A stretch of DNA of 60,144 bases, from positions 1 to 60,144 of the forward strand of contig DASYTM010000034.1 of the NCBI GenBank assembly GCA_036002345.1. Reading direction: 5' to 3'. The stretch comes from Candidatus Methylomirabilota bacterium (GTDB lineage Bacteria; Methylomirabilota; Methylomirabilia; Rokubacteriales; CSP1-6). Shown piece after piece: positions 6,897 through 54,829 of this stretch (positions are counted from its first letter, which is position 1; each line of letters opens with the position of its first letter). The position numbers and the translations under genes are program-made. Below the pieces are notes generated by a model that searched no databases, had not been told where the DNA came from, and worked only from the letters and a program-made list of their open reading frames with translations.

Positions 6897-7895
6897 TCAG
6901 CCCAGACGGAACAACCGACGCGGGTTGTCCTCGCCGATGCGCCGGATCTCCTCCGCGCCGAACCCCGCGGCGCGCAGGCTCGTCAGCGGATCGTGGTCGG
7001 CGGGCGGAAACGAATCGTCGCTGCCGATGACGAGGCGCTCGACGCCGACGCGCTCGGCGAGATACCGCAGCGCGCGCGGGTCGTGGAGGATCGTGTCGTA
7101 GTAGAGCCGGCCGAGGTACGCGGACGGGAGCGCCGCCGCGGCGATCCCGGTGGCCGCGCGGTCGCTGCGCTGGAACATCACGTCGAAGCGGCCGATGACG
7201 TACGGCACCGTCCCCCCGCCGTGCGAGAGGATCAGCGTCAGCGCGGGAAACCGATCGAGCACACCCGCGCCGATGAGCGAGCCCACGCAGAGGGTGGTGT
7301 CCACGGTGTACTGCACGATCTGGTTCAGCGCGAAGCGCCGGGTGCGCGGCGTCGGGTTCGGCTGCGCGGGATGCAGGAACACGGGCACGCCGAGCTCGAC
7401 GGCGGCGGCCCAGTACTCGTCGAGCGGCAGCTCGCCGAGGTTCGTGCCCTCCACGTTGGTCGCCGCCACCGCCCCCACCGCGCCGAGCTCCTCCACGGCG
7501 AACTCCAGCTCGCGGGCCGCGGCGGCGGCATCGGGAAGATAGCCGGAGGCGAGGACGGAGAAGTGACGGCCGTGGCGCCGCGCAAAGTCCGCGATCGACT
7601 CGTTCAGCAGCCGGTGCCACGCCGTGCCCTGCGGGGCGTCGAGGCCGTGCGCGTGCATGTCGGTCCACGTCGACAGGATCTCGCGCTCGATCCCGGTAGC
7701 GGCCATGCTGGCGAGGCGCTTCGCGGGCTCCTCGATCAGCTTGGCGAAGAACGGGCGCAGCTTCAGGCCGTAACCGAAATGCAGCGCGTGACACGCGGGC
7801 TCGGTCTCCACCACCGAGACGCCGTAGCGCGCGCCGTCCTTCCGGAGCCGCTCGATCAGCTCCGGCGGCATGTAGTGGGCGTGGACGTCGATCAT
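6897..7895 (-). CDS. Amidohydrolase_2 family protein (ACMSD-like metal-dependent hydrolase/decarboxylase)
   Basis: Internal ATG at 7895 of ORF 6897-9635. MIDVHAHYMPPE opening (H-x-H metal motif), ...ILSHGGG..., GSDDSFP near the C-terminus. ATGA overlap with the upstream Mo-subunit stop. Confidence 0.85.
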   Translation of the reverse strand: MIDVHAHYMPPELIERLRKDGARYGVSVVETEPACHALHFGYGLKLRPFFAKLIEEPAKRLASMAATGIEREILSTWTDMHAHGLDAPQGTAWHRLLNESIADFARRHGRHFSVLASGYLPDAAAAARELEFAVEELGAVGAVAATNVEGTNLGELPLDEYWAAAVELGVPVFLHPAQPNPTPRTRRFALNQIVQYTVDTTLCVGSLIGAGVLDRFPALTLILSHGGGTVPYVIGRFDVMFQRSDRAATGIAAAALPSAYLGRLYYDTILHDPRALRYLAERVGVERLVIGSDDSFPPADHDPLTSLRAAGFGAEEIRRIGEDNPRRLFRLG

Positions 7896-10213
7896 CGCCG
7901 CGCGCCCGCGATCCAGTGCGCGAGGTTCTTCGCCGACAGCGGCAGCTCGCGGACCGTCACGCCGAGCGGCGCCAGCGCCGCCGCCACGGCGTTGGCGGCG
8001 GCCGCGCCGGTGGCCACGATGCCGCCCTCGCCGGCGCCCTTGGCGCCGAGCGGATTCGACGTGGAGGGCGCGTCCTCCAGCGTGATGGACTCGAGGCTCG
8101 GAAAATCCGCGGCGGTGGGCAGCGCGTAGTCGGCCAGCGTGCCGGTGACGAGCTGGCCCGTCTCGTCGTACACGAGCGCCTCGAGGAAGGCGCCGCTCAG
8201 CCCCTGCACGGCCGCGCCGTGGGCCTGGCCGTGGACGAGCGCGGGGTTGATGACGCGGCCGACGTCCTCGACGGTCACGAGCCGCAGCACCTCGGTGGCA
8301 CCCGTCTCCGGATCGACGGCGACGTGCGCGACGTGAGCGCCGTACGTGTACGTGAGCGCGGTCGTCGTGAACTTGCCGACGGCTTCGAGCGCGGCCGCCG
8401 CCTCGGGCGAGCCTTCCGCCGCGAGCGTCGCCAGCGCCAGCACAGTGGTGCCGTCGCGGCGGACGACGTCGCCGCCCCGACACGTGAGCGCGCTCGTATC
8501 CAGGCCCGACCGTTTCGCGGCGAGCGCTATGATCTGGCCCTTCAGCGTCTCGGCGGCCGCCGCGACGGCGCTGCCGCCCACGACGACGGCGCGGCTGTGA
8601 TAGGTGCCCCAGCCCTCGGCGACGTGGGTGGTGCTGCCGTGGAACACGCTGATCCAGTCGAACGGGATCGCGAGGGCGTCGGCGAGGATCTGCGCCATCA
8701 CCGTCTCGTGGCCCTGTCCCGACGAGGCGCAGCCGCTGTAGAGCTCGACGCGCTCGGGCCCGCGGACGACGATGCGCGCGGTCTCGGCGGGGCCCGCGCC
8801 GCTCGACTCGACGAAGCAGCCGATGCCGACGCCGCGCCGCCGGCCGCCGATCAGCCGGCCATTGTCTTTCGCCAGGCGCGCGTAGTCGCTGGCCTCGAGG
8901 GCGCGGCGGAGCGCGGCGCCGTAGTTCCCGCCGTCGTAGGCGCCGGAGGCTTCGTACGGGACGAGCGAGCCGATGGTCCACGGCAGCTCGGCGGGCGTGA
9001 GGAGATTTCGCTGGCGAACCTCCGCGGCGTCGAGGCCGAGATCGGCGGCCATCAGGTCGATCAGCCGCTCGCGGAAGAAGTTGGCCTCGAAGCGCCCCGG
9101 CCCGCGATACGTCCCCGTCGGCGTCTTGTTCGTGACGACGGCCTGCACCTCGCACGCGAAGTGCGGGATGCGGTACGGGCCGGGCAGGAACTGCGCCGCT
9201 TTGGCCGGCACCACGCCGCCGTTGGTGCGGACGTAGGCCCCCATGTCGGCGAGCACGCGTCCGCGCAGGCCGCGAATGGTGCCGTCGGCGTCCGCGGCGA
9301 TCTCCAGCTCGCACTCGATCTCGCGCGAGTGATTGGCGGCCACGAAATGCTCGCGCCAGTCCTCGATCCACTTCACCGGACGGCCGAGGCGCATGGCCGC
9401 GAGCGGGATCAGGAGATCCTCGGGATAGAACTCGCCGCGCACGCCGAAGGAGCCGCCGACGTCCACCTCGAGGAGCTCGATGCTCGCCTCGTCCAGGGAC
9501 AGCATCCGTGCCAGCGCGCGCCGGTTGAAGAACGGCACCTTGGTCGCGCCCCGCACGGTCAGCCGGCGGGCCGTCGCGTCCCACGCCGCCACCAGGCCGC
9601 GCGTCTCGAGCGGCACGCCGCTGTGGCGCTGGCATCGGAACGTCTCGCGGCGCGTGTACGCCGCGCCGGCGAAGGCGGCGTCGGGGTCACCGCGCGACAC
9701 CCGGTAGCGGGTCGCCACGTTGGTGCCGGTCGCCTCGTGGACCAGGACGCGGTCGGCCAGCGCGTCGCGCGGGTCGACCACGGCGTCGAGCGGCTCGTAC
9801 GCCACCGTGACGCGCTCCGCGGCGTCCTCGGCGACGTAGCGGTCCTCCGCCACCACGAGGGCCACCGGCTCGCCGACGTAGCGCACGCGGTCGCGCGCGA
9901 ACGGCCACTGCAGATAGCGATCGAACCCGGGGAGCGGGGCGAGCCGCATGGGGATGGGCGTGCCGACGTCTGCCAGGTCGGCGGCGGTGAGCACGGCGAG
10001 CACGCCGGGCATCTTCAGAGCGGCCGCGGTGTCGATGCCGGTCAGGCGCCCGTGCGCCACGGCGCTGCGCACGACCACGGCGTGCGCGTGCGCGGGATCG
10101 GCGAGGTCGGCGACGAAGCAGCCGCGGCCGGTGAGGAAGCGCGCGTCCTCGCTGCGGCGGACGGCCGCGCCCACGAGGCGCCCGCGGGCTGATGCGCGAT
10201 CGTCCCGTCCCAT
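7892..10213 (-). CDS. Xanthine dehydrogenase/aldehyde oxidase/CoxL-family molybdopterin-binding large subunit
   Basis: 773 aa. Opening RLVGAAVRRSEDARFLTGRGCFVADL, TGTYRGPGRFEANFF and SGQGHETVMAQI motifs are characteristic of Mo-hydroxylase large subunits. Confidence 0.9.
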   Translation of the reverse strand: MGRDDRASARGRLVGAAVRRSEDARFLTGRGCFVADLADPAHAHAVVVRSAVAHGRLTGIDTAAALKMPGVLAVLTAADLADVGTPIPMRLAPLPGFDRYLQWPFARDRVRYVGEPVALVVAEDRYVAEDAAERVTVAYEPLDAVVDPRDALADRVLVHEATGTNVATRYRVSRGDPDAAFAGAAYTRRETFRCQRHSGVPLETRGLVAAWDATARRLTVRGATKVPFFNRRALARMLSLDEASIELLEVDVGGSFGVRGEFYPEDLLIPLAAMRLGRPVKWIEDWREHFVAANHSREIECELEIAADADGTIRGLRGRVLADMGAYVRTNGGVVPAKAAQFLPGPYRIPHFACEVQAVVTNKTPTGTYRGPGRFEANFFRERLIDLMAADLGLDAAEVRQRNLLTPAELPWTIGSLVPYEASGAYDGGNYGAALRRALEASDYARLAKDNGRLIGGRRRGVGIGCFVESSGAGPAETARIVVRGPERVELYSGCASSGQGHETVMAQILADALAIPFDWISVFHGSTTHVAEGWGTYHSRAVVVGGSAVAAAAETLKGQIIALAAKRSGLDTSALTCRGGDVVRRDGTTVLALATLAAEGSPEAAAALEAVGKFTTTALTYTYGAHVAHVAVDPETGATEVLRLVTVEDVGRVINPALVHGQAHGAAVQGLSGAFLEALVYDETGQLVTGTLADYALPTAADFPSLESITLEDAPSTSNPLGAKGAGEGGIVATGAAAANAVAAALAPLGVTVRELPLSAKNLAHWIAGARR

Positions 10214-10222
10214 GGAGGAAGC

Positions 10223-10228
10223 ATGATA
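10223..10228 (-). promoter_or_regulatory. -10-like TATCAT, 9 nt upstream of ATG 10213 (leaderless candidate)
   Basis: Minus strand reads GCTATCATGCTTCCTCC-ATG. No SD. Confidence 0.35.
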
Positions 10229-10264
10229 GCGATCGACCGCGTGCGATCACAAGCCGAACGGCCG

Positions 10265-13143: not shown

Positions 13144-13171
13144 CCGAGGGGCCAACTATAGGTTCCCTCGG
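13144..13171. repeat. 7-bp perfect inverted repeat CCGAGGG-N14-CCCTCGG
   Basis: Read directly. The spacer contains the minus-strand TATAGT. Confidence 0.6.
13155..13160 (-). promoter_or_regulatory. -10-like TATAGT upstream of the peptidase operon
   Basis: Lies in the spacer of the 7-bp inverted repeat 13144-13171, 40 nt upstream of ATG 13114. Confidence 0.3.
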
Positions 13172-13213
13172 GAGCGCCGTCAACGCGCGCGGCGCCGGCC
13201 GCGCGCCACGGCG

Positions 13214-31406: not shown

Positions 31407-32605
31407 TCCGCGGCGCGCGCACGACACCGTTCGCGCTGTTCTGGTGCTCGCGCGTGCTGGTCACGCTCGCGCTGCACATGCAGACCGTCGCGGTGGGCTG
31501 GCAGCTCTACTCGCTGACGGGCAGCGCCCTCGACCTCGGCCTGGTCGGGCTCGTGCAGTTCGTGCCGACCATCGTGCTCACGCTCATCGTCGGGCAGGTC
31601 GCGGACCGCTACGACCGCCGCCGCGTCGTGGTCGTGTGCGAGGTGGCTCAGGCGGCCGGGACCGCGGCGCTGGCCTTCGGCAGCGCGAGCGGCTGGCTCG
31701 GGCGCGACGGCATCCTCGCGATCCTCGCCGTGCTCGGCGGCGCGCGCGCGTTCGAGAACCCCGCGCGGGCCGCCCTCCTGCCCGGGCTCGTGCCGCTGGC
31801 TCGCCTGCCGCGCGCCATCGCCAGCGTGACCTCCGCCGGCCAGTCGGCGCGCATCGTGGGCCCGGCCCTCGGCGGCGTGCTCTACGCGCTCGGGCCGACC
31901 ACCGTGTACGCCGCCGTGGCCGCGCTGTACCTGGTCGGGGCCGCGCTGATGGCGCTCGTGCGCGGGGCGCGGCCCGGCGGGCGGTCCGACGACGAAACGC
32001 CGGCCTCGCTGTTCTCGGGGGTGGCCTTCATCGCGCGCCAGCCGCTCTTGCTCAGCATGCTGTCGCTCGATCTCTTCGCCGTCCTGCTCGGCGGCGCCAC
32101 CGCGCTGCTGCCGATCTACGCGCGCGACATCCTCGGCACCGGCCCCTGGGGCCTCGGGCTGCTGCGCGCGGCGCCCGCGGTCGGCGCGCTCGTCATGTCG
32201 GTGGTGCTCACGCGATCTCCGGTGGACCGCCGCGCCGGCACCGTGCTGTTCGGCGGCGTCATGGTCTTCGGCGTCGCCACCGTGGTCTTCGGGCTCTCCC
32301 GCAGCCTGCCGCTGTCGCTGGCCGCGCTGGTCGTGCTCGGCGCCGCCGATCTGCTCAGCGTCGTCATCCGGCACTCGCTGGTGCAGATCCGCACCCCCGA
32401 CGGCATGCGCGGCCGCGTGAGCGCCGTGCACTCGCTGTCCACCGGTACCTCGAACCAGCTCGGCGAGTTCGAGTCCGGGCTCCTGGCCGCGCTGTTCGGG
32501 CCCGTGGCCGCCGTGCTCATCGGCGGCGTCGGCACGATCGTGGTGGCCGCGGTCTGGATGCACCGATTCCCCGCGCTACGCCGCTTCCGGCTGGCCGCCT
32601 CGTGA
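31403..32605 (+). CDS. MFS transporter (MFS_3/EntS-like), start uncertain
   Basis: Hydrophobic C-terminal 400 aa of ORF 30878-32605. The first TM begins right after the amidase stop. No canonical start lies between 31403 and the in-frame GTG at 31454. Confidence 0.8.
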   Translation: MIRGARTTPFALFWCSRVLVTLALHMQTVAVGWQLYSLTGSALDLGLVGLVQFVPTIVLTLIVGQVADRYDRRRVVVVCEVAQAAGTAALAFGSASGWLGRDGILAILAVLGGARAFENPARAALLPGLVPLARLPRAIASVTSAGQSARIVGPALGGVLYALGPTTVYAAVAALYLVGAALMALVRGARPGGRSDDETPASLFSGVAFIARQPLLLSMLSLDLFAVLLGGATALLPIYARDILGTGPWGLGLLRAAPAVGALVMSVVLTRSPVDRRAGTVLFGGVMVFGVATVVFGLSRSLPLSLAALVVLGAADLLSVVIRHSLVQIRTPDGMRGRVSAVHSLSTGTSNQLGEFESGLLAALFGPVAAVLIGGVGTIVVAAVWMHRFPALRRFRLAAS

Positions 32606-33253
32606 GGCGCCGGGCGCCGGCTTCGCCCAGGGACTCAGCTCCCAGAGCCCGACCACCGTGAAGTAGAGGACGCCGAAGGCGAGCGCGCGGTGCGGCTCGT
32701 CGACCCAGAGGCCCTCGCCGGGCAATTCCTGGGCGGCGACGACGGCCCGGGTCACGCCGAGGCGCGGAACGGGCAGCATCGTCGTGACGCCGGCGGAGAC
32801 GAGGTAGGCGACCGCGCCGAAGCCCCACCCGAAATAGACGTACGTCTTCTCGCTCTCGCTTCGCGCCCGGCCGGCGAGCAGCGGGCCGAGCAGCCGGTTC
32901 GCGGTCAAGAGCCAGAACGTGACGAGCGGCCACCAGGTGCCGAACGCCAGCGAGAAGCCGCCCAGGAGCGCCGTGTAGACGAGCGCGAGCCCGGCGACGA
33001 CGGGCACCTTGACGGCCCGCTCGAAGTCGCTGACGGCGAAGCCCATCAGCAATCCGGAGGAGTGCACGGTCACGAGCTCGACGAGCATCACCAGCACGAG
33101 GTAGGCGACCATCCGCTCGCCGAGCGCCGGCGGCGAGACCCACGTGACCACGAACGTGCCGGCGAGGACGAAGTTGGGCACGGCCGCGACGAGCCGCCGC
33201 GGCAGGGTGCCCGGGATCGTCGTGTCGGGGCCGTCGAGCATCGCGCGTACCAT
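32576..33253 (-). CDS. Uncharacterised 6-TM membrane protein, paralogue 1 of 3
   Basis: 225 aa. Shares FPN-VLAGTF--TW, LE--NVH-SGL, FGTWWPL--FWLLT-NRLL, LPGEG-W--EP-R and G-LYF blocks with the genes at 47461-48078 and 49480-50097. Confidence 0.7.
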   Translation of the reverse strand: MVRAMLDGPDTTIPGTLPRRLVAAVPNFVLAGTFVVTWVSPPALGERMVAYLVLVMLVELVTVHSSGLLMGFAVSDFERAVKVPVVAGLALVYTALLGGFSLAFGTWWPLVTFWLLTANRLLGPLLAGRARSESEKTYVYFGWGFGAVAYLVSAGVTTMLPVPRLGVTRAVVAAQELPGEGLWVDEPHRALAFGVLYFTVVGLWELSPWAKPAPGASRGGQPEAA

Positions 33254-42313: not shown

Positions 42314-43591
42314 ATGCTCTCACGCGAAGACAACGAGCTCTTGACCCGGGTCGGCCGCGGCACCCCCATGGGCACCACGATGCGGCGCTACTGGATCCCC
42401 GCGCTCCTGGCCTGGGAGCTGCCGTCGCCCGATTGCCCGCCCGTACGGGTCAAGCTGCTCGGCGAGGAGCTCGTCGCCTTCCGCGACACGCAAAATCGCA
42501 TCGGGCTCTTCGACGAGTACTGCCCGCATCGGCGCGCGTCGCTCTTCTTCGGCCGCAACGAGGAGTGCGGGCTGCGCTGCGTCTACCACGGCTGGAAGTT
42601 CGATGTCGAAGGCCGCTGCGTGGACATGATGAACGAGCCCGAGAGCCTGCAGTTCAAGAACAAGGTGTTCGCGCCGGCCTATCCCACCGTCGAGGTGGGC
42701 GGCGTCATCTGGGCGTACCTCGGCCCGCCCGAGCTCCGGCCGCCGCTGCCGAACTTCGCCTGGACGCAGGCGCCGGAAACGCACCGCCACGTCTCGAAGG
42801 TCGTCCAGGAAAGCAACTGGCTGCAGGGGGTGGAGGGCGGCGTCGACACCTCGCACGCGCCGATCATGCACCGCGTCTTCAACCCCGACTCCAAGCGTCC
42901 CGGCTTCAAGCCCACGCACGCCTTCGTGCGCAGCAAGGCGCCCACGCTCGTCGTCGACGTCACCGACTACGGCTACCAGTACGCGAGCCTGCGGCCGCTC
43001 GAGGAGACGAGCCTGCACGTCCGCACCTACCACTTCATCCTGCCCTTCCACCAGATCCGTCCGTCGCAGTCGTGGGGCGGGTCCGCCACGGTGTGCGGGC
43101 ACATGTGGGTGCCGATGGACGACGAGACCACGATGGTCTTCAACTGGGACTGCAGCGAGCGTGAGCCGCTGACGGACGAGGACCGCCTGGAGCGGCGGCT
43201 CGGCAACGGGCCGCTCGACGTGGACCAGGTCACGTTCGTGTCCCATCGGAACAAGCGGAACAACTACCTGCTCGATCGCCAGGTCCAGAAGACCGAAACG
43301 TTCACCGGGATCGACGGCGTCAACGTGCAGGACCGCGCCATCCAGGAGGGCATGGGGCGCATCGTCGACCGCAGCAAGGAGCACCTCGGGCCCGCCGACA
43401 AGGCCGTGATCCAGGCGCGCCGGCTCCTGCTGCAGGCCGTGAAGACGGTGGGCGAGGGCGGCACGCCGCGCGGCGTGGCCGGCACGTATTACGCGCTGCG
43501 CGCCGCCGAGGGCGTGGTGCCGAAGGACGCCGACTGGCGCGCGGCCCTCACGCCGGAGATGGCCGGTACGCACATCGAGCAGACCGTCTAG
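42314..43591 (+). CDS. Rieske [2Fe-2S] non-haem iron oxygenase, phthalate-family (single-subunit) type
   Basis: ATG at 42314 after GAAGGAG. Rieske motif CPHRRASL...CVYHGWKF. Confidence 0.9.
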   Translation: MLSREDNELLTRVGRGTPMGTTMRRYWIPALLAWELPSPDCPPVRVKLLGEELVAFRDTQNRIGLFDEYCPHRRASLFFGRNEECGLRCVYHGWKFDVEGRCVDMMNEPESLQFKNKVFAPAYPTVEVGGVIWAYLGPPELRPPLPNFAWTQAPETHRHVSKVVQESNWLQGVEGGVDTSHAPIMHRVFNPDSKRPGFKPTHAFVRSKAPTLVVDVTDYGYQYASLRPLEETSLHVRTYHFILPFHQIRPSQSWGGSATVCGHMWVPMDDETTMVFNWDCSEREPLTDEDRLERRLGNGPLDVDQVTFVSHRNKRNNYLLDRQVQKTETFTGIDGVNVQDRAIQEGMGRIVDRSKEHLGPADKAVIQARRLLLQAVKTVGEGGTPRGVAGTYYALRAAEGVVPKDADWRAALTPEMAGTHIEQTV

Positions 43592-43633
43592 CTGTCTTCA
43601 AGTTGATACAGCGGTGAGTGAGTCGCTCCGTGT

Positions 43634-43639
43634 TAACGT
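43634..43639 (+). promoter_or_regulatory. -10-like TAACGT, 7 nt upstream of ATG 43647 (leaderless candidate)
   Basis: TAACGTCGGGGCG-ATG. Confidence 0.25.
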
Positions 43640-43646
43640 CGGGGCG

Positions 43647-44006
43647 ATGGGGACGTTCTTCTCAGAAGTTCTTCTCGCATCGCCGGCCCGGCCCGAGCGT
43701 CGCGAGCCCGTCAAATTGCTCGTCGACAGCGGCTCGATGTACACATGGATTTCGGCGACGCTGCTGCGCGATCTCGGTCTTCAGCCGACCGAGCGCCGGC
43801 GCATCCTCACGATCGAAGGACGCGCGACCGAACGCGGCGCGGCCGAGATCCTGATCACGCTCGACGGCCGCACGCTCCACACGCTTTGCGTATTCGGCGA
43901 GCCCAACGACCTCGAGGTACTGGGCGCCTACACGCTCGAAGGCTTCGGCCTGGGCATCGATCCGGTTCAGCGGCGGCTGATTCCCGCCATCCTCTACGGC
44001 GCGTAG
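43647..44006 (+). CDS. Retropepsin-like (clan AA) aspartic peptidase domain protein
   Basis: About 120 aa. LLVDSGSMYTWI active-site D-S-G motif and LGAYTLEGFGLGIDP tail. Visibly lower GC than its neighbours. The alternative GTG at 43614 is not excluded. Confidence 0.65.
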   Translation: MGTFFSEVLLASPARPERREPVKLLVDSGSMYTWISATLLRDLGLQPTERRRILTIEGRATERGAAEILITLDGRTLHTLCVFGEPNDLEVLGAYTLEGFGLGIDPVQRRLIPAILYGA

Positions 44007-45543: not shown

Positions 45544-46062
45544 CTAGAAGAAAAACGTCAGGTTCTTGGCGAGGAGCACGCTCTGGTCGAGCACGATCTT
45601 GCGCCGCGCGATCTTGAACGACCCGTTCTCCCGGCGCAAGAGGTCTTCCCGCTTGCCGACGAGGAAGTCCGTCTCGGTCTCCACGCGATTGCGATACACG
45701 AGGAACCGGCTCTTGACCTCGATCTCGGTCGGCGTCGACCGGAGTACCTGCACGTTGGAGATCATGTGGCAGATCCGCGAGGGCGGCTCCTCGGCCCAGT
45801 GGACGCCGGTGAGGATCTGCTGCACGCGCCGGCCGAGGGTGTCCTTGCCCTCGTCGAACCAGTTGACGTCGCTGCCCTCGCGCGTGAACTCGCGCTCGAT
45901 CTCGTCGTGCGGGACGTTGCGGCGCAGCGGCATAAAGTACCGCGCATCGTCGGTGAAGAGCGCGAGCCAGTCTTCATAGCGGCGCTCGTCGAGAAGCTCG
46001 GCCTCCCGGTAGAGAAACTCCTGGACCTCGTGCTGGACGAGCAGCCGGTCGAGGTCGGTCAC
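45544..46062 (-). CDS. Aromatic-ring-hydroxylating dioxygenase beta subunit
   Basis: 172 aa from the GTG at 46062, in a GTGA overlap with the alpha-subunit stop. The EFLYREAELLDERRYEDWLALFTDDARYFMP SnoaL-like fold is typical of RHO beta subunits. Confidence 0.85.
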   Translation of the reverse strand: MTDLDRLLVQHEVQEFLYREAELLDERRYEDWLALFTDDARYFMPLRRNVPHDEIEREFTREGSDVNWFDEGKDTLGRRVQQILTGVHWAEEPPSRICHMISNVQVLRSTPTEIEVKSRFLVYRNRVETETDFLVGKREDLLRRENGSFKIARRKIVLDQSVLLAKNLTFFF

Positions 46063-47384
46063 GTCAGGTCCTTCCAGGAGCCGGCCTCCATGAACTGGCG
46101 CCAGCGCCGGTAGAAGCCGCGCTGGTTGTGCTCGCTGGCGGTGGCGGCCGTCACGTCGGTGATCGCGCCGGGCAGTTTCAGGCCGTGGTCCTCGAACGCG
46201 CGCGTCGAGCGGCCGAGCCCCATCTCGTAGTTGTAGGGGTACTGGCGCGCGATGGTGCCGCGGCTGGCCTTGTGCGCGTAGTTCCAGTTCTCCATGTCGT
46301 CCTGCTCGGTCAGCCCCGACGGCCCCGAGTAGCGGATGTAGTAGTGGCGCAGGAAGTCCTTCACCTCCGCGGGCGCGTCGGCGTCCACGAAGTACCAGCG
46401 CCAGACCTCCGTCTGGTGCGGGCCGCGCGGGTGCCACACGGCCAGCGTGCGCGGCTGCCGCGCGAGCGGCGACGTGTTGGGGAACATCGTCCCCGGCCCG
46501 CCGAAGAGCCGCCAGTACTCGCCGCGCCGGCGCTTGCGTTCTTCTTCGCAGCGGCGGAAGTAGTCCGCGGCGACGGGCGCGTCCTGGTAGGCGGGCATGA
46601 GCGGCGAGTCGTGCGCTCGCAGGAACGCGATCATCGAGTGGCCCAGCTCGGGGAACGACACGTCGAGCCAGCGCGCCTGGTTGCGCTCGCCCATGTCGCG
46701 GCGGCCCTTGCCGCTCGGCCCGATGCCCACCATGTCCACCGAGCGGTGGCTCACCCCGTGATAGCGGTCGCCCGAGAAGTTCTCGGCGGGGAACTTCCAG
46801 TTGCACGGGATCAGCCACTTGTGAACGCCACCGATCGCCTCCGTGCCGCCCTCGCGCCCGTCCCACGCATCCAGTAAAAGGTCGAGGTAGAGCTTGTAAC
46901 CGCCGACGTACTCGAGGAACGACGGCGCGTCAGCCGCCCACGTCGCCCAGATCGAGCCCTTGTAATTGGTCATCTGCGCGACGTGAATCAGACCCCACTT
47001 CGATTTGTCGAGCCCCTCGCCGTATGCGTCCTTGGCGAACGGAACGCCAACCAGCGTGCCGTCCGTGGCGTAGGACCAGCCGTGGTACGAGCACATGAAC
47101 TCGGCGGTGTTGCCCTCGTCGTAGCGGCAGACCTTCATCCCGCGGTGCCGGCACGAGTTCAGGAACACGTGGAGCTTCGCGTCCCGGTCGCGGCAGAGGA
47201 TCACCGACTCCTCGCCCATGGACGAGACGACGAAGTCGCCGGGCTTGGGGACCTGGCTCTCGTGGCCGACGAAGAGCCACGCCCGCGAGAAGACCTGCTC
47301 CTGCTCCTGCCGGTAGATCTCCTCGTTGACGAAGATCTCGCGGCTGATGATCCCCTTATCGACGTCGACGAGGTCGCGGATCAT
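46059..47384 (-). CDS. Aromatic-ring-hydroxylating dioxygenase alpha subunit (Rieske)
   Basis: 441 aa. CRHRGMKVC...CSYHGWSY Rieske motif and a catalytic-domain His/Asp region (ENFSGDRYHGVSH). GGAGG SD. Confidence 0.9.
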   Translation of the reverse strand: MIRDLVDVDKGIISREIFVNEEIYRQEQEQVFSRAWLFVGHESQVPKPGDFVVSSMGEESVILCRDRDAKLHVFLNSCRHRGMKVCRYDEGNTAEFMCSYHGWSYATDGTLVGVPFAKDAYGEGLDKSKWGLIHVAQMTNYKGSIWATWAADAPSFLEYVGGYKLYLDLLLDAWDGREGGTEAIGGVHKWLIPCNWKFPAENFSGDRYHGVSHRSVDMVGIGPSGKGRRDMGERNQARWLDVSFPELGHSMIAFLRAHDSPLMPAYQDAPVAADYFRRCEEERKRRRGEYWRLFGGPGTMFPNTSPLARQPRTLAVWHPRGPHQTEVWRWYFVDADAPAEVKDFLRHYYIRYSGPSGLTEQDDMENWNYAHKASRGTIARQYPYNYEMGLGRSTRAFEDHGLKLPGAITDVTAATASEHNQRGFYRRWRQFMEAGSWKDLT

Positions 47385-47417
47385 GGATCTAGCCTCCGGC
47401 GGCGATGCCGCGCGCAG

Positions 47418-47446
47418 ACCATACGCCGACCGGCGGTCGCGAGCAA
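47418..47446 (-). promoter_or_regulatory. Sigma70-like promoter TTGCTC-N17-TATGGT upstream of the dioxygenase alpha gene
   Basis: -35 at 47441-47446 and -10 at 47418-47423 (minus strand). The block CGGTCGGCG-TATnGTC-nn-CGCGC is conserved with 49437-49465. Confidence 0.45.
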
Positions 47447-47460
47447 ACGGGCGCCCGCGC

Positions 47461-48078
47461 TCAGGCGGTGGCCCCTCGATCCCGCAGCTTCATCAACCAC
47501 GCGTACGAGTTCAGTTGCATGAGCGCCACGGCGCTGAAGTAGAGGACGCCGGCCGCCATCACGCGCTGGGGCTCGTTGACCCACGTCCCCTCACCCGGGA
47601 GATGCTCCGCCTGGACGACAGCCTTCGTGATGCCGAGCTCGGGGACAGGGACGATGGTCGTCAAGACGCCCGCCAGCACGAAGGCCACGAATCCCGACAC
47701 CCAGGCCATCGTGACCAGCTCGTGCTCGCGTCCCGGCGACCCCTGGCCGAGCAGCGTCGGGAGCAGTCGATTGACGGTCAGTAGCCAGAAGGCCATCAGA
47801 GGCCACCACGTCCCGAACGCGATCGCGAGGCCGCCGGCGAACAGGGTGGCGAACAAGCAGAACCCGCCGATCCTCGTCACCTTCTTCGTGACGTCGGCCT
47901 CGGTCGTCATGATCGTCGCGATCAATCCGGACGTGTGCACGTTGATGAACTCCAGCACCATCAACAACATGAGGCTGGAAATCATCCCGGGCCCGAATCT
48001 CGACGGCTCGATCCAGGTGAGGAGGAACGTCCCGGCCAGGACGATGTTGGGAAAGGCGGAGACGACCGCCTTTACCAC
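47461..48078 (-). CDS. Uncharacterised 6-TM membrane protein, paralogue 2 of 3
   Basis: 205 aa. GTG start overlapping the UbiD stop by 7 nt. Opening VKAVVSAFPNIVLAGTF, then LEFINVHTSGL, FGTWWPLMAFWLLTVNRLLPTLL and LPGEGTWVNEPQR. Confidence 0.75.
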   Translation of the reverse strand: MVKAVVSAFPNIVLAGTFLLTWIEPSRFGPGMISSLMLLMVLEFINVHTSGLIATIMTTEADVTKKVTRIGGFCLFATLFAGGLAIAFGTWWPLMAFWLLTVNRLLPTLLGQGSPGREHELVTMAWVSGFVAFVLAGVLTTIVPVPELGITKAVVQAEHLPGEGTWVNEPQRVMAAGVLYFSAVALMQLNSYAWLMKLRDRGATA

Positions 48079-49415
48079 GACACCTCATCGGCGCCCGGCA
48101 CGATGACGCGGTTGTAGCGCTCGCGCGACTCGCCGAGCGGCACCGTGCAGTCGAAGCCCATCTTCGACGAGTGCCGGTGCACGGGCGCGGATGGATCGAG
48201 CGGCGCCCCGATCATGGCCGGGAAGATCATCACGTCGTCGCTCGGCTGGCAGCGCGTGTAGATGGCCCACAGCACCTGGTCGATGTTCCGCACGTCCACG
48301 TCGGGATCGACGACGATGCAGTACTTCGCCTGCGGCGCGCCCGCCGTGGGGCCGAGCACGCTCAGGATGACGTTGCGCGCCTCGTACGCGAGCCGCTTCT
48401 TGATGGCCACCACGGCGATGTAATAGGGGCCGATGGCGTGCACGTCCACGACCTCCGGGCAGGCCAGCTGCGCCATCCGCTTGATCGACTCGCAGATCGC
48501 CGGCCACGCCTGCACGTGATTGTCCGTCGTCGGCATCCCCGTGAGCGCCGTCTGGTACATCACGTCGCGGCGCATGGTGATGGCGGTCACCTCGAAGACG
48601 TGGCGGTTGCCGAGCAGGCCGTACGTGCCCGCCACCTCGCCGAACGGGCCTTCGGGCTCGCGCGCCTTGGGCACGAACTCGCCCTCGATGACGATCTCGG
48701 CATCGGCGGGCACGTCGGCGTCCACGGTCTTGCAGGGCACCAGCTCGATGGGGCGGCCGGCCAGCGCGCCCGCCACGCCGAGCTTCTCCTGCGCGTGCGG
48801 GATCTTCGCCTGCGAGCCGAGATCGACGAACGGCCCGACGCCGAGCGCGACGGCCGCGCCCCAGCGCTCGCCCTTGTCCTCGGCCTTGAGGTACGCGCGG
48901 CCCACGCGGCGCTCGGCCGGCATGTTCACGCCGAACACGCGCGGCCCCTTGAGCTGCATGCGCTGCAGCCCCACGGCCAGCGTGCCCGTCTGGGGATCGC
49001 GCCCGAACATGACACCGGCCGTGAGATAGCGGCCCGCGTCGAGCTCGGAGTGCACGACGATCGGCAGCTGCGTGCAGTCGGCCTTGTCGCCCGTCAGCAC
49101 GACCTCCTGGCACGGGCCGCTTGTCACGCGCTTCGCCGCGATCGGCTTGCGCACGGCTTCGCCGTATCGGTCGACGAGTTCGTTGATGGGGCAGCCGAGC
49201 GCAATCGGCAGCCGCGCCATCGTCCCGTAGAGCCCGGCCGCCAGCTTCCAGCCGGGGTGACCGGTCACGTTGGTGAACACGAACGCCGGCCCGTTGGTGT
49301 CGGAGGACTTGCGGACGTACGCCGCGACCTCGAACTCCGGGCTGACGGGCTTGTCGACGCGGACGAGCTGGCCGGCGCGGTCGAGCGCGTCGAGATAGGC
49401 GCGGAAGTCGGACAT
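48072..49415 (-). CDS. UbiD family (prenyl-FMN-dependent) decarboxylase
   Basis: About 447 aa. MSDFRAYLDALDRAGQLVRVDKPV opening and EPEGPFGEVAGTYG motif. GGAGG lies 4 nt before the ATG at 49415; the track's TTG at 49418 is too close to the SD. Confidence 0.9.
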   Translation of the reverse strand: MSDFRAYLDALDRAGQLVRVDKPVSPEFEVAAYVRKSSDTNGPAFVFTNVTGHPGWKLAAGLYGTMARLPIALGCPINELVDRYGEAVRKPIAAKRVTSGPCQEVVLTGDKADCTQLPIVVHSELDAGRYLTAGVMFGRDPQTGTLAVGLQRMQLKGPRVFGVNMPAERRVGRAYLKAEDKGERWGAAVALGVGPFVDLGSQAKIPHAQEKLGVAGALAGRPIELVPCKTVDADVPADAEIVIEGEFVPKAREPEGPFGEVAGTYGLLGNRHVFEVTAITMRRDVMYQTALTGMPTTDNHVQAWPAICESIKRMAQLACPEVVDVHAIGPYYIAVVAIKKRLAYEARNVILSVLGPTAGAPQAKYCIVVDPDVDVRNIDQVLWAIYTRCQPSDDVMIFPAMIGAPLDPSAPVHRHSSKMGFDCTVPLGESRERYNRVIVPGADEVSW

Positions 49416-49436
49416 CAACCCTCCTCGGGCGCGGTG

Positions 49437-49465
49437 ACGATAGCGCCGACCGCTGCCGCGCGCAA
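49437..49465 (-). promoter_or_regulatory. Sigma70-like promoter TTGCGC-N17-TATCGT upstream of the UbiD gene
   Basis: -35 at 49460-49465 and -10 at 49437-49442 (minus strand). Homologous to the block at 47418-47446. Confidence 0.45.
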
Positions 49466-49479
49466 ATCCACCGCCCGGT

Positions 49480-50097
49480 TCAGGCGCCGGCCCCCGCGCC
49501 CCGCTCGTCCTCGACGATCTTCCCCACCCAGCGGTGCGTGCTCAGCTGCAGGGCCGCAACAGCCGTGAAATAGAGGAAGCCGAAGGCGAGCGCCCGGTGT
49601 GGCTCGTCGATCCAGAGCCCGGAGCCGGAACCACCCGCCGCGCCCCGCGTGGTCCCGAAGCGAGGAAGCGGTAGCAGGGTGGTCGCGCAGACGAAGAACA
49701 GGTAGAACGCGCATCCCGCGACCCATGAGACCGTGACGATGTACCGCTCCTGCCCTGTCGGGGCCTGGCGGAGCAGCGTCGGGAGCAGACGGTTCAGCGT
49801 CAACAGCCAGAAGGCCGTCAGCGGCCACCACGTCTTGAAGGCCAGGGCCATGCCGACGACGAACAGCGTGTAGAGGGCGCCGAGCCCGAGGATCAACTTC
49901 ACTTTCTTCGTCGTGTCGGCGGCGCCCGTGAGCACGATCCCCATGAGCCCCGCCGAGTGGACGTTGATGAACTCGAGGAGCATCAGCAGCGTCAGGGACG
50001 AGACCATCCCCGGGCCCAGCGTCGATGGCGCGATCCACGTGATCAGGAACGCCAGGGCGAGGACGACGTCGGGAAAGGCGGCAACGACCGCCTTCAC
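49480..50097 (-). CDS. Uncharacterised 6-TM membrane protein, paralogue 3 of 3
   Basis: 205 aa from the GTG at 50097, in a GTGA overlap with the E2 stop. Opening VKAVVAAFPDVVLALAF, then LEFINVHSAGL, FKTWWPLTAFWLLTLNRLLPTLL and GLWIDEPHR. Confidence 0.75.
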   Translation of the reverse strand: MKAVVAAFPDVVLALAFLITWIAPSTLGPGMVSSLTLLMLLEFINVHSAGLMGIVLTGAADTTKKVKLILGLGALYTLFVVGMALAFKTWWPLTAFWLLTLNRLLPTLLRQAPTGQERYIVTVSWVAGCAFYLFFVCATTLLPLPRFGTTRGAAGGSGSGLWIDEPHRALAFGFLYFTAVAALQLSTHRWVGKIVEDERGAGAGA

Positions 50098-51408: not shown

Positions 51409-52458
51409 CTACCCCGGCAGTCCCGTGAAGACCTCGCGCGCCACCTTCAAAGCCCGCTCGATCCCCGCGGCATCCACGTCGAGGTGGGTGACGGCGCGGA
51501 TGGTGTGCGGCCCCAGCGCGCCCATGCGTACGCCGTGGGCGAGCAGGTGCTCGACGGCTTCCGCGGCGTTCGCGACGGTCTCGAAGAAGACGATGTTGGT
51601 CTCGACGGTCGCCGGATCCACGCGAACCCCGGGCAACGACGCCAGCCCCTCGGCCAGCCGCCGCGCATTCAGATGATCGTCGGCCAGGCGCTTCACGTGA
51701 TGGCGGAGCGCGTACACGCCGCCGGCGGCGATGATGCCGGCCTGCCGCATGGCGCCGCCCATCTGCTGCTTGTAGCGCCACGCCTCGTCGATGAAGGCGC
51801 GCGAGCCGGCCATGGCCGCGCCGACGGGCGCGCCGAGTCCCTTGGTGAAGTCGATCCACACGGAGTCGAACGGCGCCGCCCAGTCGCGCGCGGCCACGCC
51901 GCTGGCGACCACGGCGTTCATGAGCCGCGCGCCGTCCATGTGCGTGGAGAGCCCGTGACGGCGCGCGACCGCGGTGACTTCCTTGACGCGCGCCAGGGGC
52001 CAGATCGAGCCGCCGCCGAGATTGCTCGTCTGCTCCACCCACAAGAGGCGGCTCCGCGGGAAGTGGCGGAATGCCGGGCGCACCGCGGCCTCGACGGCCG
52101 CCGCGTCGTACTGGCCGCGCGGCCCGTCGATCCCGCGCATGTTGACGCCGGCGAGCGCGCCGGGTCCGCCGGTCTCGAAGTGGATCGGGTGCGCCGTCGC
52201 GTGGGCAATGACCTCCTCGCCGGGCCGGGCGTGCACGCGGAGGGCGATCTCGTTGCACATGGTGCCCGAGGGCAGGAACACGGCGGCTTCCTTGCCGAGG
52301 AGCTCGGCCACCATCTCGCAGAGGAGATTGACGGTGGGGTCTTCCATCTTCTGCTCGTCCCCCACTTCCGCCTCGCTCATGAACCTGCGCATATCGGGAG
52401 TAGGCCGGGTGAGCGTGTCGCTATAAAGGTCGACGTCGATCCGTGGACCGCGGGTCAT
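51409..52458 (-). CDS. Low-specificity threonine aldolase/GntG-like PLP-dependent aldolase
   Basis: 349 aa from the ATG at 52458. DLYSDTLTRPT opening, GTMCNEIAL and DFTKGLGAP (PLP lysine). Confidence 0.85.
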   Translation of the reverse strand: MTRGPRIDVDLYSDTLTRPTPDMRRFMSEAEVGDEQKMEDPTVNLLCEMVAELLGKEAAVFLPSGTMCNEIALRVHARPGEEVIAHATAHPIHFETGGPGALAGVNMRGIDGPRGQYDAAAVEAAVRPAFRHFPRSRLLWVEQTSNLGGGSIWPLARVKEVTAVARRHGLSTHMDGARLMNAVVASGVAARDWAAPFDSVWIDFTKGLGAPVGAAMAGSRAFIDEAWRYKQQMGGAMRQAGIIAAGGVYALRHHVKRLADDHLNARRLAEGLASLPGVRVDPATVETNIVFFETVANAAEAVEHLLAHGVRMGALGPHTIRAVTHLDVDAAGIERALKVAREVFTGLPG

Positions 52459-52466
52459 GGCCAGAG

Positions 52467-52472
52467 AGTATA
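52467..52472 (-). promoter_or_regulatory. -10-like TATACT, 8 nt upstream of ATG 52458 (leaderless candidate)
   Basis: Minus strand reads GCTATACTCTCTGGCC-ATG. No SD. Confidence 0.4.
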
Positions 52473-52503
52473 GCCGTGACGCCAGGGGGTCAGGTGCCCT
52501 AGT

Positions 52504-53229
52504 ATGTGGCGCATGCTTCCACGTAAGGCTCTGATTGCTCTGCTCAGTGTCGTGCTCTGGGGTTGCGCCTCCTCGACTCCGACTCCGCCGCGGCCGGCCG
52601 CGCGCCCGTTCGACAACGTGAAGCGGATCGCCGTCGTCGTCAGCGGCGACAGCCGCTTCGCCGTGCTCGAGCACCGCGCCCAGCCCGGGAAGACGTTCGA
52701 CGAGGTGCTCGGCTGGGCGCCGTTCGGCTCGCTGCTCAAGCCCTTCGCGATGCTCGTGCACGAGGGCATCAACTGGCTCGTCGAGTCCGATCGCTCCAAG
52801 ACGACGGGCCGGCACGTCGAAGGCCTCTCGCCGCAGGCCGCCGTCAGCATCGCGTTCGCGGAGACCCTCGCCGCGAGCCAGCAGTTCCAGGAGGTCCAGA
52901 TGCCCGAGCGCGAGCCGGTGGGCGAGGAGCGGCGGCGTCTCGACGCCATCGTCCGCCTGTCGGTTCCCACGTGGGGCCTCGTGCGCGTGCGCGAGGGCGA
53001 TCCCGATCTCCTCTCCGGCTTCGCCGACGTGCGCGCCGAGCTCGTCGTGCGCGGCACCGGCGCCGCGGTGTGGGAGCGGCGGGAGGACGTCACCGATCCC
53101 GAGCGGCTGCCCCTGACGGCGTTCAAGAAGGACCCGGAGTTCACGCGGCACCACATGCTCGACGTGCTCACGCGCGCCGGCCAGCGCCTGGCCAACGAGC
53201 TCGTGTACGCGCGGAGCGCGGGCCGATGA
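52504..53229 (+). CDS. Lipoprotein of unknown function
   Basis: 241 aa. Lipobox VLWGCAS. No recognisable domain. Confidence 0.7.
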   Translation: MWRMLPRKALIALLSVVLWGCASSTPTPPRPAARPFDNVKRIAVVVSGDSRFAVLEHRAQPGKTFDEVLGWAPFGSLLKPFAMLVHEGINWLVESDRSKTTGRHVEGLSPQAAVSIAFAETLAASQQFQEVQMPEREPVGEERRRLDAIVRLSVPTWGLVRVREGDPDLLSGFADVRAELVVRGTGAAVWERREDVTDPERLPLTAFKKDPEFTRHHMLDVLTRAGQRLANELVYARSAGR

Positions 53230-53831
53230 GCGCGCGGCGGCTCGCGCTGCTCGTGACCCTCGCGGCGATGCTCGGCGGCTGCGCGGGCGCCTCGGGCCTC
53301 GCCGTGCGCTACCCCGAAGCCGGCGCCAATCGCGCGCTGCTCGCCTCGGTGACGAGCCGCCGCGTCGAGATCCGGCCCGTCGCCGACGCGCGCCTCGACA
53401 CCACCCGAATCGGGACGCGGCCGAAGGACGGCACGAACATCGTCACGGAGCGTCCGGTGGCCGACATCGTGGGTGAGGCGCTCGCCGTGGAGGTCGCGAA
53501 GAACGGTCACACGGTGGCCGTCGCGCCCAGCGAGGTCGTCCTGGCCACCGACGTCGAGGAGTTCTGGCTCGACACGGTTCGCGGCTACGGGAGCACGCAG
53601 TACGTCGGCAAGGTCGCGTTCAGCGTGACGGTGCTGGACGGGCGCACCGGCGACCGGCTCGCCACCCGTCGCTACGTGGGCATCAAGCGGCGGCAGGTCG
53701 ACACCGCCTCCGACGACGTCGCCCGCGAGGTGATGGACGCCGCGCTCGCGCGCAGCATGCGCGACCTGGCCACGGACCCGGCGTTCGTCAACGCCTTCGC
53801 CGGCGTGACGACGGCCGCGGCCCCGCGCTAG
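53226..53831 (+). CDS. Lipoprotein of unknown function (possibly YajG-like)
   Basis: 201 aa from the ATG at 53226, in an ATGA overlap with the previous gene. Lipobox MLGGCAG. The family assignment is tentative. Confidence 0.65.
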   Translation: MSARRLALLVTLAAMLGGCAGASGLAVRYPEAGANRALLASVTSRRVEIRPVADARLDTTRIGTRPKDGTNIVTERPVADIVGEALAVEVAKNGHTVAVAPSEVVLATDVEEFWLDTVRGYGSTQYVGKVAFSVTVLDGRTGDRLATRRYVGIKRRQVDTASDDVAREVMDAALARSMRDLATDPAFVNAFAGVTTAAAPR

Positions 53832-54829
53832 CTCTTCCGGCAGAGCACCTTCGCGGCCTCGGCCACCGACTGCTCGGAGGGCACGGTCAGGTCCTCGAGC
53901 ACCGGCGAGAACGGCACGGGCACGTCCATGGCGCCGATGCGCTTGACCGGCGCGTCGAGGTGGTAGAAGGCGCCGTCGGCGATGACCGACGCGATCTCCG
54001 CCGTGACGCCGTAACGCTCGTACCCCTCGTCCACGACGATGGCGCGCGACGTCTTCTTCGCCGAGTCGATCAGCGTCTGCTTGTCGAGCGGCCACGTGGT
54101 GCGCGGGTCGATGACCTCGGCGCTGATGCCCGCCTCGTCGAGCAGCTTGGCCGCGCCGAGGGCCACCGTCACCATGCTGCTGGTGGCCACGATGGTCACG
54201 TCGCGACCCTGGCGCTTGATCTCCGCGACGCCGAACGGAATCGTGTAGTCGTCCGCCGGCACCGGGCCCTTCACGCGGTACATCATCTTGTCCTCGAAGA
54301 TCACCACGGGGCTGTCGTCGCGGATCGCCGTCTTCATGAGGCCCTTGGCCTCGTAGGGGCCGGACGGCAGCGCGACCTTGAGCCCGGGGACGTGGCTGAC
54401 CCACGCGTGGAGCGACTGCGAGTGCTGCGCCGCGGAGCGGCGGGTCGCGCCGAGCGTGGTGCGGAAGACGATCGGCACCTTGATCTTGCCGCCCGACATG
54501 TAGTGGACCTTGGCGGCCTGGTTGACCATCTGGTCCATGGTGAGCGTGATGAAGTCGCCGAACATGATGTCCACGATGGGCCGCATGCCCGTCATGGCCG
54601 CCCCCACGCCGATGCCCGCGTAGCCCGGCTCGGAGATCGGCGTGTCGATGACGCGGTCCGTGCCGAACTCCTGCACCAGCCCCACCAGCGTCTTGAAGGG
54701 ATGGCCGGCCTCCGCGACGTCCTCGCCGATGAGGAACACGCGCGGATCGCGCCGCATCTCCTCCGCGATCGCTTCCTTGACCGCCTCGCCGTACGTCAGC
54801 TCGCGCACCGCCGCTTCCGTCGTCGCCAT
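53828..54829 (-). CDS. 2-oxoacid (pyruvate/acetoin/branched-chain) dehydrogenase E1 beta subunit
   Basis: 333 aa. Reads LTYGEAVKEAIAEEMRRDPRVFLIGEDV...DTPISEPGYAGIGVGAAMTGMRP...QHSQS. GGAGGAGAGG SD. Confidence 0.9.
   Translation of the reverse strand: MATTEAAVRELTYGEAVKEAIAEEMRRDPRVFLIGEDVAEAGHPFKTLVGLVQEFGTDRVIDTPISEPGYAGIGVGAAMTGMRPIVDIMFGDFITLTMDQMVNQAAKVHYMSGGKIKVPIVFRTTLGATRRSAAQHSQSLHAWVSHVPGLKVALPSGPYEAKGLMKTAIRDDSPVVIFEDKMMYRVKGPVPADDYTIPFGVAEIKRQGRDVTIVATSSMVTVALGAAKLLDEAGISAEVIDPRTTWPLDKQTLIDSAKKTSRAIVVDEGYERYGVTAEIASVIADGAFYHLDAPVKRIGAMDVPVPFSPVLEDLTVPSEQSVAEAAKVLCRKS

Follow-up and report, generated by a model that had tools for sequence, protein, structure and literature searches.

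The region described here is contig DASYTM010000034.1 of a Candidatus Methylomirabilota bacterium (assembly GCA_036002345.1), whose forward-strand positions 1-60,144 (the window, with a GC content of about 70%) contain the gene for a UbiD-family decarboxylase placed between two genes, P3 and P2, that code for paralogous membrane proteins. From 52.5 down to 44 kb, the minus strand carries a threonine-aldolase-like gene, a dihydrolipoamide acyltransferase gene (E2), P3, UbiD, P2 and the genes for the alpha and beta subunits of a Rieske ring-hydroxylating oxygenase. Beyond the beta subunit, and on the same strand, there are histidine phosphatase and 3-hydroxyisobutyrate-dehydrogenase-like genes, both assigned with Pfam (Table 1). 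A sequence-only reading of this stretch had given these same identities to UbiD, E2, the Rieske subunits and the threonine aldolase, all of which were borne out by Pfam, and had proposed that the membrane proteins could form a module, as a partner or as a transporter, for the decarboxylation and oxygenation of aromatic acids, a proposal that did not survive comparison with other genomes.

The paralogous genes P1, P2 and P3

P2 and P3 are real coding genes, present as minus-strand open reading frames (ORFs) of 205 aa each at the positions that the sequence-only reading had given. The GC content at third codon positions (GC3) is 0.91 in both, matching the neighbouring genes, with a range of 0.91-0.96 over the paralogous genes. 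The two proteins are 51% identical (BLASTP, E 1e-70) and their coding DNA 66%, and the conserved blocks LEFINVH(S/T)(A/S)GL, TWWPL-AFWLLT-NRLLPTLL and G-W--EP-R, which had been picked out by eye, were all found in the P2/P3 alignment. The overlaps with the preceding genes were also confirmed: the GTG of P3 lies inside a GTGA shared with the E2 stop, and the GTG-initiated ORF of P2 overlaps the TAA of UbiD by 7 nt. These upstream GTG starts are correct, because the family alignment covers helix 1 (which contains the invariant W22 and the near-invariant P25). A public gene call of P2 (P0001, 166 aa) shortens the protein and loses this helix; the same 205-aa ORF of P3 is found in NCBI nr.

The third paralogue to which the sequence-only reading had alluded is P1, which was found when the window was searched by tblastn with P2 and P3 (46% identity, E 7e-49) and is about 45% identical to both of them. 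P1 is divergent from an ABC (ATP-binding cassette)-transporter binding-protein-like gene, read from its translation and without a Pfam match, and convergent with a major facilitator superfamily (MFS) gene, and there is no enzyme gene ahead of it. The end of a TATGGT hexamer lies 7 nt ahead of the probable ATG of P1 at 33241 (region 32576-33253, minus strand), which suggests a leaderless transcript, or one with a very short leader; the ORF listing takes the ATG within this hexamer as the start. A neighbour-joining tree pairs P2 with P3 as sisters and groups them in one clade with P1 and P0002, the closest relative outside the window. P3 retains the family consensus and P2 departs from it at D11N, S49T, Y77A and Y133F, positions that are 82-97% conserved in the family; P2 may have an altered or partly lost function.

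Table 1. Positions of the genes, flanking blocks and promoter-like sites considered in the window
Feature	Position	Strand	Remarks
P3, 205-aa six-helix membrane protein	49480..50097	-	GTG start in the overlap with the E2 stop (GTGA)
P2, 205-aa paralogue of P3	47461..48078	-	GTG start, 7-nt overlap with the UbiD stop
P1, third paralogue	32576..33241	-	Probable start, ATG at 33241
Block 3' of P3, upstream of UbiD	49429..49477	-	TTGCGC-N17-TATCGT at 49437-49465
Block 3' of P2, upstream of Rieske alpha	47410..47457	-	TTGCTC-N17-TATGGT at 47418-47446
UbiD-family decarboxylase	48072..49415	-	447 aa from the ATG, as in orthologues; Pfam, TIGR00148
Dihydrolipoamide acyltransferase (E2), upstream of P3	50094..51404	-	Pfam
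Threonine-aldolase-like gene (Beta_elim_lyase)	51409..52458	-	Pfam; opens the threonine aldolase-E2-P3 unit
Rieske ring-hydroxylating oxygenase alpha	46059-47384	-	Pfam; downstream of the P2 block
Rieske ring-hydroxylating oxygenase beta	45544-46062	-	Pfam; downstream of the P2 block
Generic pattern match before molybdopterin dehydrogenase gene	10223-10252	-	Divergent intergenic region
Generic pattern match before lipoprotein-like gene	13155-13183	-	Divergent intergenic region

Several other features surround this group of genes. An E1beta gene (53828-54829, minus strand) has no adjacent E1alpha, and it is separated from E2 by the threonine aldolase and by two lipoprotein-like genes of the plus strand (52504-53831). 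On the other side, a LigXa-type Rieske oxygenase gene (42320-43591, plus strand) is followed by a gene for a 130-aa retropepsin-like aspartyl protease (43614-44006, plus strand), an unusual neighbour within a catabolic cluster.

The duplicated 3' flank and its promoter-like pattern

The homology that had been noticed between the DNA downstream of P2 and that downstream of P3 was confirmed over about 50 nt past the stop codons, with 74% identity. The local alignment score of this block is 23, against 10.3 +/- 2.0 in shuffled sequences (0 of 2000 shuffles reached the score), and random segments of the window reached it in 2 of 3000 cases. This block homology supports the claim that the gene and its 3' flank were copied as one module. 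The identity in the block is also higher than in the whole coding DNA (66%) and in its last 120 nt (58-60%), and this low value just upstream of the stop codons argues for an element under a constraint of its own and against a gene-conversion tract. The block was found neither downstream of the family genes in 40 other loci nor upstream of the UbiD orthologues, and therefore it belongs to the P2/P3 module and not to UbiD.

Both blocks contain the pattern TTGCNC-N17-TATNGT, as the sequence-only reading had stated, and these two sites are its sole matches; two compensating 1-nt insertions or deletions leave the length of the spacer unchanged at 17 nt. A generic pattern (TTGNNN-N16-18-TANNNT), which was not derived from the blocks, has no more than four matches when both strands of the 60-kb window are considered, all of them intergenic and pointing at the adjacent gene (the two sites outside the blocks are listed in Table 1). 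This placement is non-random, because intergenic DNA makes up about 5% of the annotated 25-kb stretch. After the blocks there are Shine-Dalgarno sequences, both strong (GAGGAGGG before the ATG of UbiD and GGAGG before that of Rieske alpha), and the start codon with its Shine-Dalgarno lies 23-37 nt downstream of the promoter-like pattern. The arrangement resembles the internal sigma-70-type promoters of high-GC gene clusters in the TTGNNN-N17-TANNNT pattern and in this distance, and differs from them in that the hexamer pairs match only 7 of the 12 consensus positions. An internal promoter is favoured by the non-random placement of the generic pattern together with the strong Shine-Dalgarno after each block, and the blocks would thus probably be the predicted internal promoters of UbiD and of the Rieske alpha and beta genes. 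The earlier promoter claim gains support insofar as the pattern marks solely intergenic upstream sites in the window; it was not backed by the consensus match or by a standard promoter scan of 43.5-56 kb, which reported no promoter.

The best-placed alternative, although it seems clearly less probable than a promoter, is that the block has another role, as an operator for a shared regulator, as a short translated leader or as a stabiliser of the 3' end of the P mRNA. The higher conservation of the block over the adjacent coding DNA indicates some constraint, and the hexamers agree poorly with the sigma-70 consensus. For a translated leader, there is a short ORF in each block that runs from the TTG of the -35-like hexamer to a TGA overlapping the downstream ATG (47385-47446 and 49416-49465, minus strand; 21 sense codons before Rieske alpha and 16 before UbiD), and the same two insertions or deletions restore its frame too. 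However, neither TTG is preceded by a properly spaced Shine-Dalgarno, both downstream genes have strong Shine-Dalgarno sequences of their own, the two putative peptides are unlike, and chance open frames are expected at 70% GC, so that these short ORFs are probably due to chance. Neither a stable or shared RNA fold nor an evident palindrome for a dimeric regulator was seen in the blocks, and the confinement of the generic pattern to intergenic upstream sites of the window also speaks for a promoter. A hairpin or terminator was considered for the blocks and rejected (fold z-scores of 0.35 and -0.46, with predicted structures that differ), and no terminator-like site was found in the scan of 43.5-56 kb.

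A different promoter-like element is found in the divergent intergenic region 52459-52503 (minus strand), where a TATACT hexamer precedes the ATG of the threonine aldolase (52458) by 9 nt. Its spacing is of the leaderless type and there is no TTG at -35, which is why the generic pattern scan missed it.

An undescribed family of six-helix membrane proteins

The family of P1, P2 and P3 is undescribed in all the libraries tested, in agreement with the sequence-only reading, which had not recognised it. None of the three proteins has a match in Pfam-A, NCBIfam, PADLOC or PHROGs, and sequence searches of the PDB with profiles of 7 and 78 sequences gave nothing below E 0.5. When the 78 members were compared with Pfam at E <= 1, scattered sub-threshold matches were obtained, none of them at gathering score, and UbiA, DoxX and LysE/RhtB were not among the 25 best of the 32 weakly matched families. 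TgpA_N, the six-helix N-terminal domain of the transglutaminase TgpA, is the sole family among these 25 that was matched by more than two members (5 of the 78, best E 0.0052), although these matches stay well short of the gathering threshold and have no significance over 78 x 24736 comparisons, and the domain is itself uncharacterised.

The family is large. A full HMMER scan with the 7-sequence profile against 1.84 billion cluster representatives from public metagenomes (clustered at 50% identity) retrieved 985 proteins with E <= 1e-3, a number that falls to 618 for E <= 1e-10 and to 228 for E <= 1e-30; their length is in nearly all cases 190-250 aa. Word-indexed protein searches are insensitive for this family, with 5 and 15 matches against the 985 found by HMMER. 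Members are named 'hypothetical protein' in their source records. Matches in genomes come from metagenome-assembled genomes of Gemmatimonadales and Candidatus Eisenbacteria, and the family extends over Rokubacteria, Gemmatimonadota, Eisenbacteria and other bacteria known mainly from metagenomes; no match was found by tblastn among 72,556 plasmids.

The claim of six transmembrane helices was upheld both by hydropathy and by an AlphaFold2 model of high confidence (pLDDT 93.9, pTM 0.87, from a 78-sequence alignment), which has six long helices (residues 2-23, 32-57, 63-88, 92-109, 117-142 and 170-204) and two short ones within the loop between helices 5 and 6. Two models were compared with the PDB by Foldseek, taking E <= 1e-3 or a TM-score >= 0.5 as a fold match, and neither gave one; for the model of pLDDT 94, the best E was 0.65 and the TM-scores were <= 0.30. 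A search of BFVD (predicted structures of viral proteins) with the better model likewise gave no match (best E 0.43). Lysine and arginine are concentrated at loop 2 and where helix 3 begins, around loop 4 and in the tail at the C-terminus, and helices 5 and 6 are joined by an acidic loop. Under the positive-inside rule, such a distribution would put the N- and C-termini in the cytoplasm, with the conserved helix 5-6 loop facing the outside.

Across the 78 sequences, W22, E43, H48, P146 and P170 are invariant and P25, F44, Y77, P93, L100, W126, Y133, P144, G149, G164, W166, G177 and Y180 are at least 90% conserved, the invariant Glu and His being located in helix 2. The otherwise invariant His48 is replaced in fused relatives, by N in P0011 and by C in P0088. 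The extra parts of P0088, P0091, P0011 and P0132 consist either of a segment at the N-terminus that resembles a zinc ribbon and has an acidic linker or of extensions of about 200 aa; these extensions have no Pfam match, and the fusion partners gave weak hints of an N-terminal zinc ribbon and no informative domain.

As to function, the most likely role, still a tentative one, is that of a transporter or channel for a small solute or an ion that would use the intramembrane Glu and His. This guess is based on the size, the topology, the charged residues in the middle of the membrane and the two-gene units with TetR (four Gemmatimonadales-type loci) or AsnC regulators, to which the conserved outer loop and the generic position at the end of operons can be added as evidence on function. 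Among known systems, the small exporters of the LysE/RhtB type have about 200 aa and 5-6 transmembrane helices and are often encoded beside Lrp/AsnC or other regulators, and the family described here resembles them in size, in helix number and in the pairing of some members with TetR or AsnC. It differs from them in lacking a sequence match, a structural neighbour in the PDB and an internal repeat (the N- and C-terminal halves are aligned by hhalign with a probability of 0.9%), membership of the LysE superfamily being judged by a profile match plus an internal repeat of 3+3 helices.

A membrane-embedded enzyme, for example a hydrolase or one that carries out acyl or glycosyl modification, which would use Glu43 and His48 together with the outer loop, is ranked behind the transporter or channel and is rather unlikely. 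The invariance of the Glu and His in helix 2 fits such an enzyme, as does the strong conservation of the outer loop, which is rich in Pro and Gly (P144, P146, G149, G164, W166, P170). The CPBP/Abi (Rce1-like) glutamic intramembrane proteases carry the motifs EExxxR, FxxxH and HxxxN/D, and E43-F44-x3-H48 recalls the second of them, both groups having a Glu and a His in a transmembrane helix. However, EExxxR and the second His are missing from the columns that are at least 80% conserved, there are six helices and not about eight, and no Pfam match to CPBP or to any other enzyme family was obtained with the 78 members. The lack of structural neighbours in the PDB and BFVD and the loss of His48 in some fused relatives count against an enzyme too.

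Gene neighbourhoods and origin of the arrangement

The genes next to the family in other bacteria were examined in loci from genomes and metagenomes (L001-L038, about 30 distinct contexts), a locus search with the four closest sequences having given 3 genome loci and 22 metagenome loci. In eight loci, all from a single clade of about 53% GC (L015, L016, L018-L021, L024 and L033), the upstream gene of the same strand codes for an LhgO-like FAD oxidoreductase (Pfam DAO), which the family gene always follows in this clade, and in the four Gemmatimonadales-type loci it is a TetR gene, overlapping by 4 nt. Elsewhere it codes for a HAD hydrolase, AsnC, ALAD, a GT2 glycosyltransferase, citrate synthase, an EVE-domain protein, a glyoxalase-alpha/beta-hydrolase fusion, a zinc alcohol dehydrogenase or another alpha/beta hydrolase, and P0002 is preceded, with a GTGA overlap, by a gene that looks amidohydrolase-like by its translation. 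Family genes often overlap the upstream gene by 4 nt, and in most loci they are the last of their unit, with a convergent gene next. In L016 and L019 the next genes may be PgsB and PgsC of poly-gamma-glutamate synthase, which they resemble by eye. An independent local duplication in another lineage is seen in L028 (10001-11261), where two tandem family genes lie behind the glyoxalase-alpha/beta-hydrolase fusion.

No homologue of UbiD, E2, the Rieske alpha and beta subunits or the threonine aldolase was found by tblastn (E <= 1e-3) in the flanks of any of these approximately 38 loci, nor was one of the E1beta, histidine phosphatase or dehydrogenase of the window. The central gene itself matches UbiD_N, UbiD and UbiD_C of Pfam (E-values of 9.7e-21, 1.2e-56 and 6e-29) and TIGR00148 (315.7 bits, cut-off 244.85), and by these profiles it is a true member of the UbiD family. 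Among solved structures, the nearest to it is PDB 6h6v (E 2e-72), which we take to be the furandicarboxylate decarboxylase HmfF. The structure 6H6V is among the UbiD structures used in PMC8379154. Orthologues of this UbiD at 85% identity are named Candidatus Rokuibacteriota, which marks the window as Rokubacteria-like, and in the contexts of orthologues at 89, 88, 82 and 66% identity there is no family gene within 5-6 kb. The conserved neighbour in these four contexts is the large subunit of a molybdopterin dehydrogenase, of the aldehyde/xanthine-dehydrogenase type, which adjoins this UbiD clade in either divergent or co-directional orientation in 4 of 4 contexts (L039-L044, L046-L048). A UbiX-like flavoprotein is encoded near the orthologue of 66% identity, and the contig of the closest orthologue carries an adjacent E1beta-E2 pair, behind which there is a convergent UDG gene and no member of the family. 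The nearest homologue of this dehydrogenase in the window (7892-10213, minus strand, 34% identical) is 38 kb away from UbiD. The only other contig with the order E2-P3-UbiD-P2 (L045) shares 99.8% DNA identity with the window and therefore comes from the same population and is uninformative on conservation. The E2-P3-UbiD-P2 adjacency would be specific to this strain or population.

Taken together, we give a probability of roughly 0.6 to the following reading. P2 and P3 would be old paralogues of a bacterial inner-membrane family of about 200 aa, undescribed so far, with P1 as a third copy, and the copied unit would be the gene plus about 50 nt of its 3' flank. Each copy would lie directly behind whatever gene precedes it, the stop/start overlap suggesting translational coupling, and the conserved flank would most likely act as an internal promoter, for UbiD after P3 and for Rieske alpha and beta after P2. 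The membrane protein would have a role that does not depend on UbiD, E2 or the Rieske oxygenase. P2 and P3 are older than the split of this strain from its relatives, since they are 51% identical and the UbiD proteins are 88-89% identical across that split. UbiD appears to have been displaced in the window from its usual dehydrogenase partner and seems to have moved in between P2 and P3, and the present order was probably assembled by rearrangement around pre-existing paralogues.

Several points weigh against this reading. P2 and P3 are far more diverged than the 89% identical UbiD orthologues that lack the arrangement, so this is no simple recent duplication. The conservation of the block comes from a single pair, and the two blocks are homologous, hence they represent one event rather than two. 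The four matches to the generic pattern are no excess over the 3.1 +/- 1.7 expected by chance, the hexamer pairs agree with the E. coli consensus at only 7 of 12 positions, and the standard scan was empty. As regards function, no feature separates a transporter from an enzyme, and the replacement of His48 in P0011 and P0088 disfavours a strictly catalytic His throughout the family.

A bolder version of the same reading seems unlikely: the family would be a new class of inner-membrane proteins with a fold unrepresented among solved structures and a functional intramembrane Glu and His, and in this lineage the gene with its own downstream promoter would be a portable module for operon junctions, coupled in translation to the preceding gene and restarting transcription for the following one. 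If true, it would reveal a new transporter, channel or membrane enzyme.

It is improbable that the order membrane gene and block, UbiD, membrane gene and block was produced by Campbell-type integration, or by the spread of a mobile cassette carrying UbiD, with the repeats as by-products of recombination. Direct repeats of gene plus flank do bracket a single gene that in all the related genomes examined sits elsewhere, beside the molybdopterin dehydrogenase; yet the repeats, with 66% DNA and 51% protein identity, are more diverged than the UbiD orthologues (88-89%) and so predate a recent move of UbiD, both copies are intact ORFs with a GC3 of 0.91, and no integrase, transposase or att-like feature was found at 44-53 kb.

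The weakest of the alternatives, that the membrane proteins serve specifically as partners of the enzymes encoded on either side (as an anchor, a transporter of substrate or product, or a substitute for UbiX or UbiA) in an aromatic-acid module, is close to refuted: the overlaps of their starts with the E2 and UbiD stops, the aromatic-catabolism genes around them, the lack of UbiX in the window and the second metagenome sample with E2-P3-UbiD-P2 (albeit of the same population) are outweighed by the absence of homologues of these enzymes near the family loci elsewhere, by UbiD orthologues that keep their dehydrogenase and have no family gene, by the solitary P1 between MFS and ABC-transporter genes, and by the functionally unrelated upstream neighbours in other genomes. 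The sequence-only reading had itself named a lack of conserved synteny with UbiD or E2 as the finding that would speak against such a module, and no such synteny exists in the loci compared. UbiD, a decarboxylase that depends on prenylated FMN (prFMN), acts with the flavin prenyltransferase UbiX, a protein of the Pfam family Flavoprotein (PF02441), and, in quinone synthesis, with the membrane prenyltransferase UbiA, and the locus recalls this system in having a membrane-protein gene alongside a UbiD-family gene. It differs in that P2 and P3 have no Pfam match, to UbiA or otherwise, that the UbiD orthologues have no membrane gene and that there is no UbiX in the window, as the earlier reading had noted (tblastn with the UbiX-like protein of L043, best E 0.48); this absence covers the window alone, and UbiX may be encoded at another place in the genome. 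UbiD adjoins the membrane genes and is not their partner; neither the family loci nor the UbiD orthologue contexts show a link.

The overall significance is modest, since families and promoter hints of this kind are common in metagenomic data. No new cofactor or partner system of UbiD is revealed, and dropping that idea saves effort. The pattern TTGNNN-N17-TA(T)NNT in four intergenic upstream regions is one of the few sequence hints to Rokubacteria promoters, and the two matches outside the blocks may help to define a promoter consensus for this group. What the locus offers is a lineage-specific expansion of an undescribed and fairly widespread membrane family, together with a probable duplicated promoter. 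With about 1000 clusters and neither a Pfam entry, a name nor a structural relative among solved structures, this family is a clean target for the definition of a new protein family and for a first functional test.

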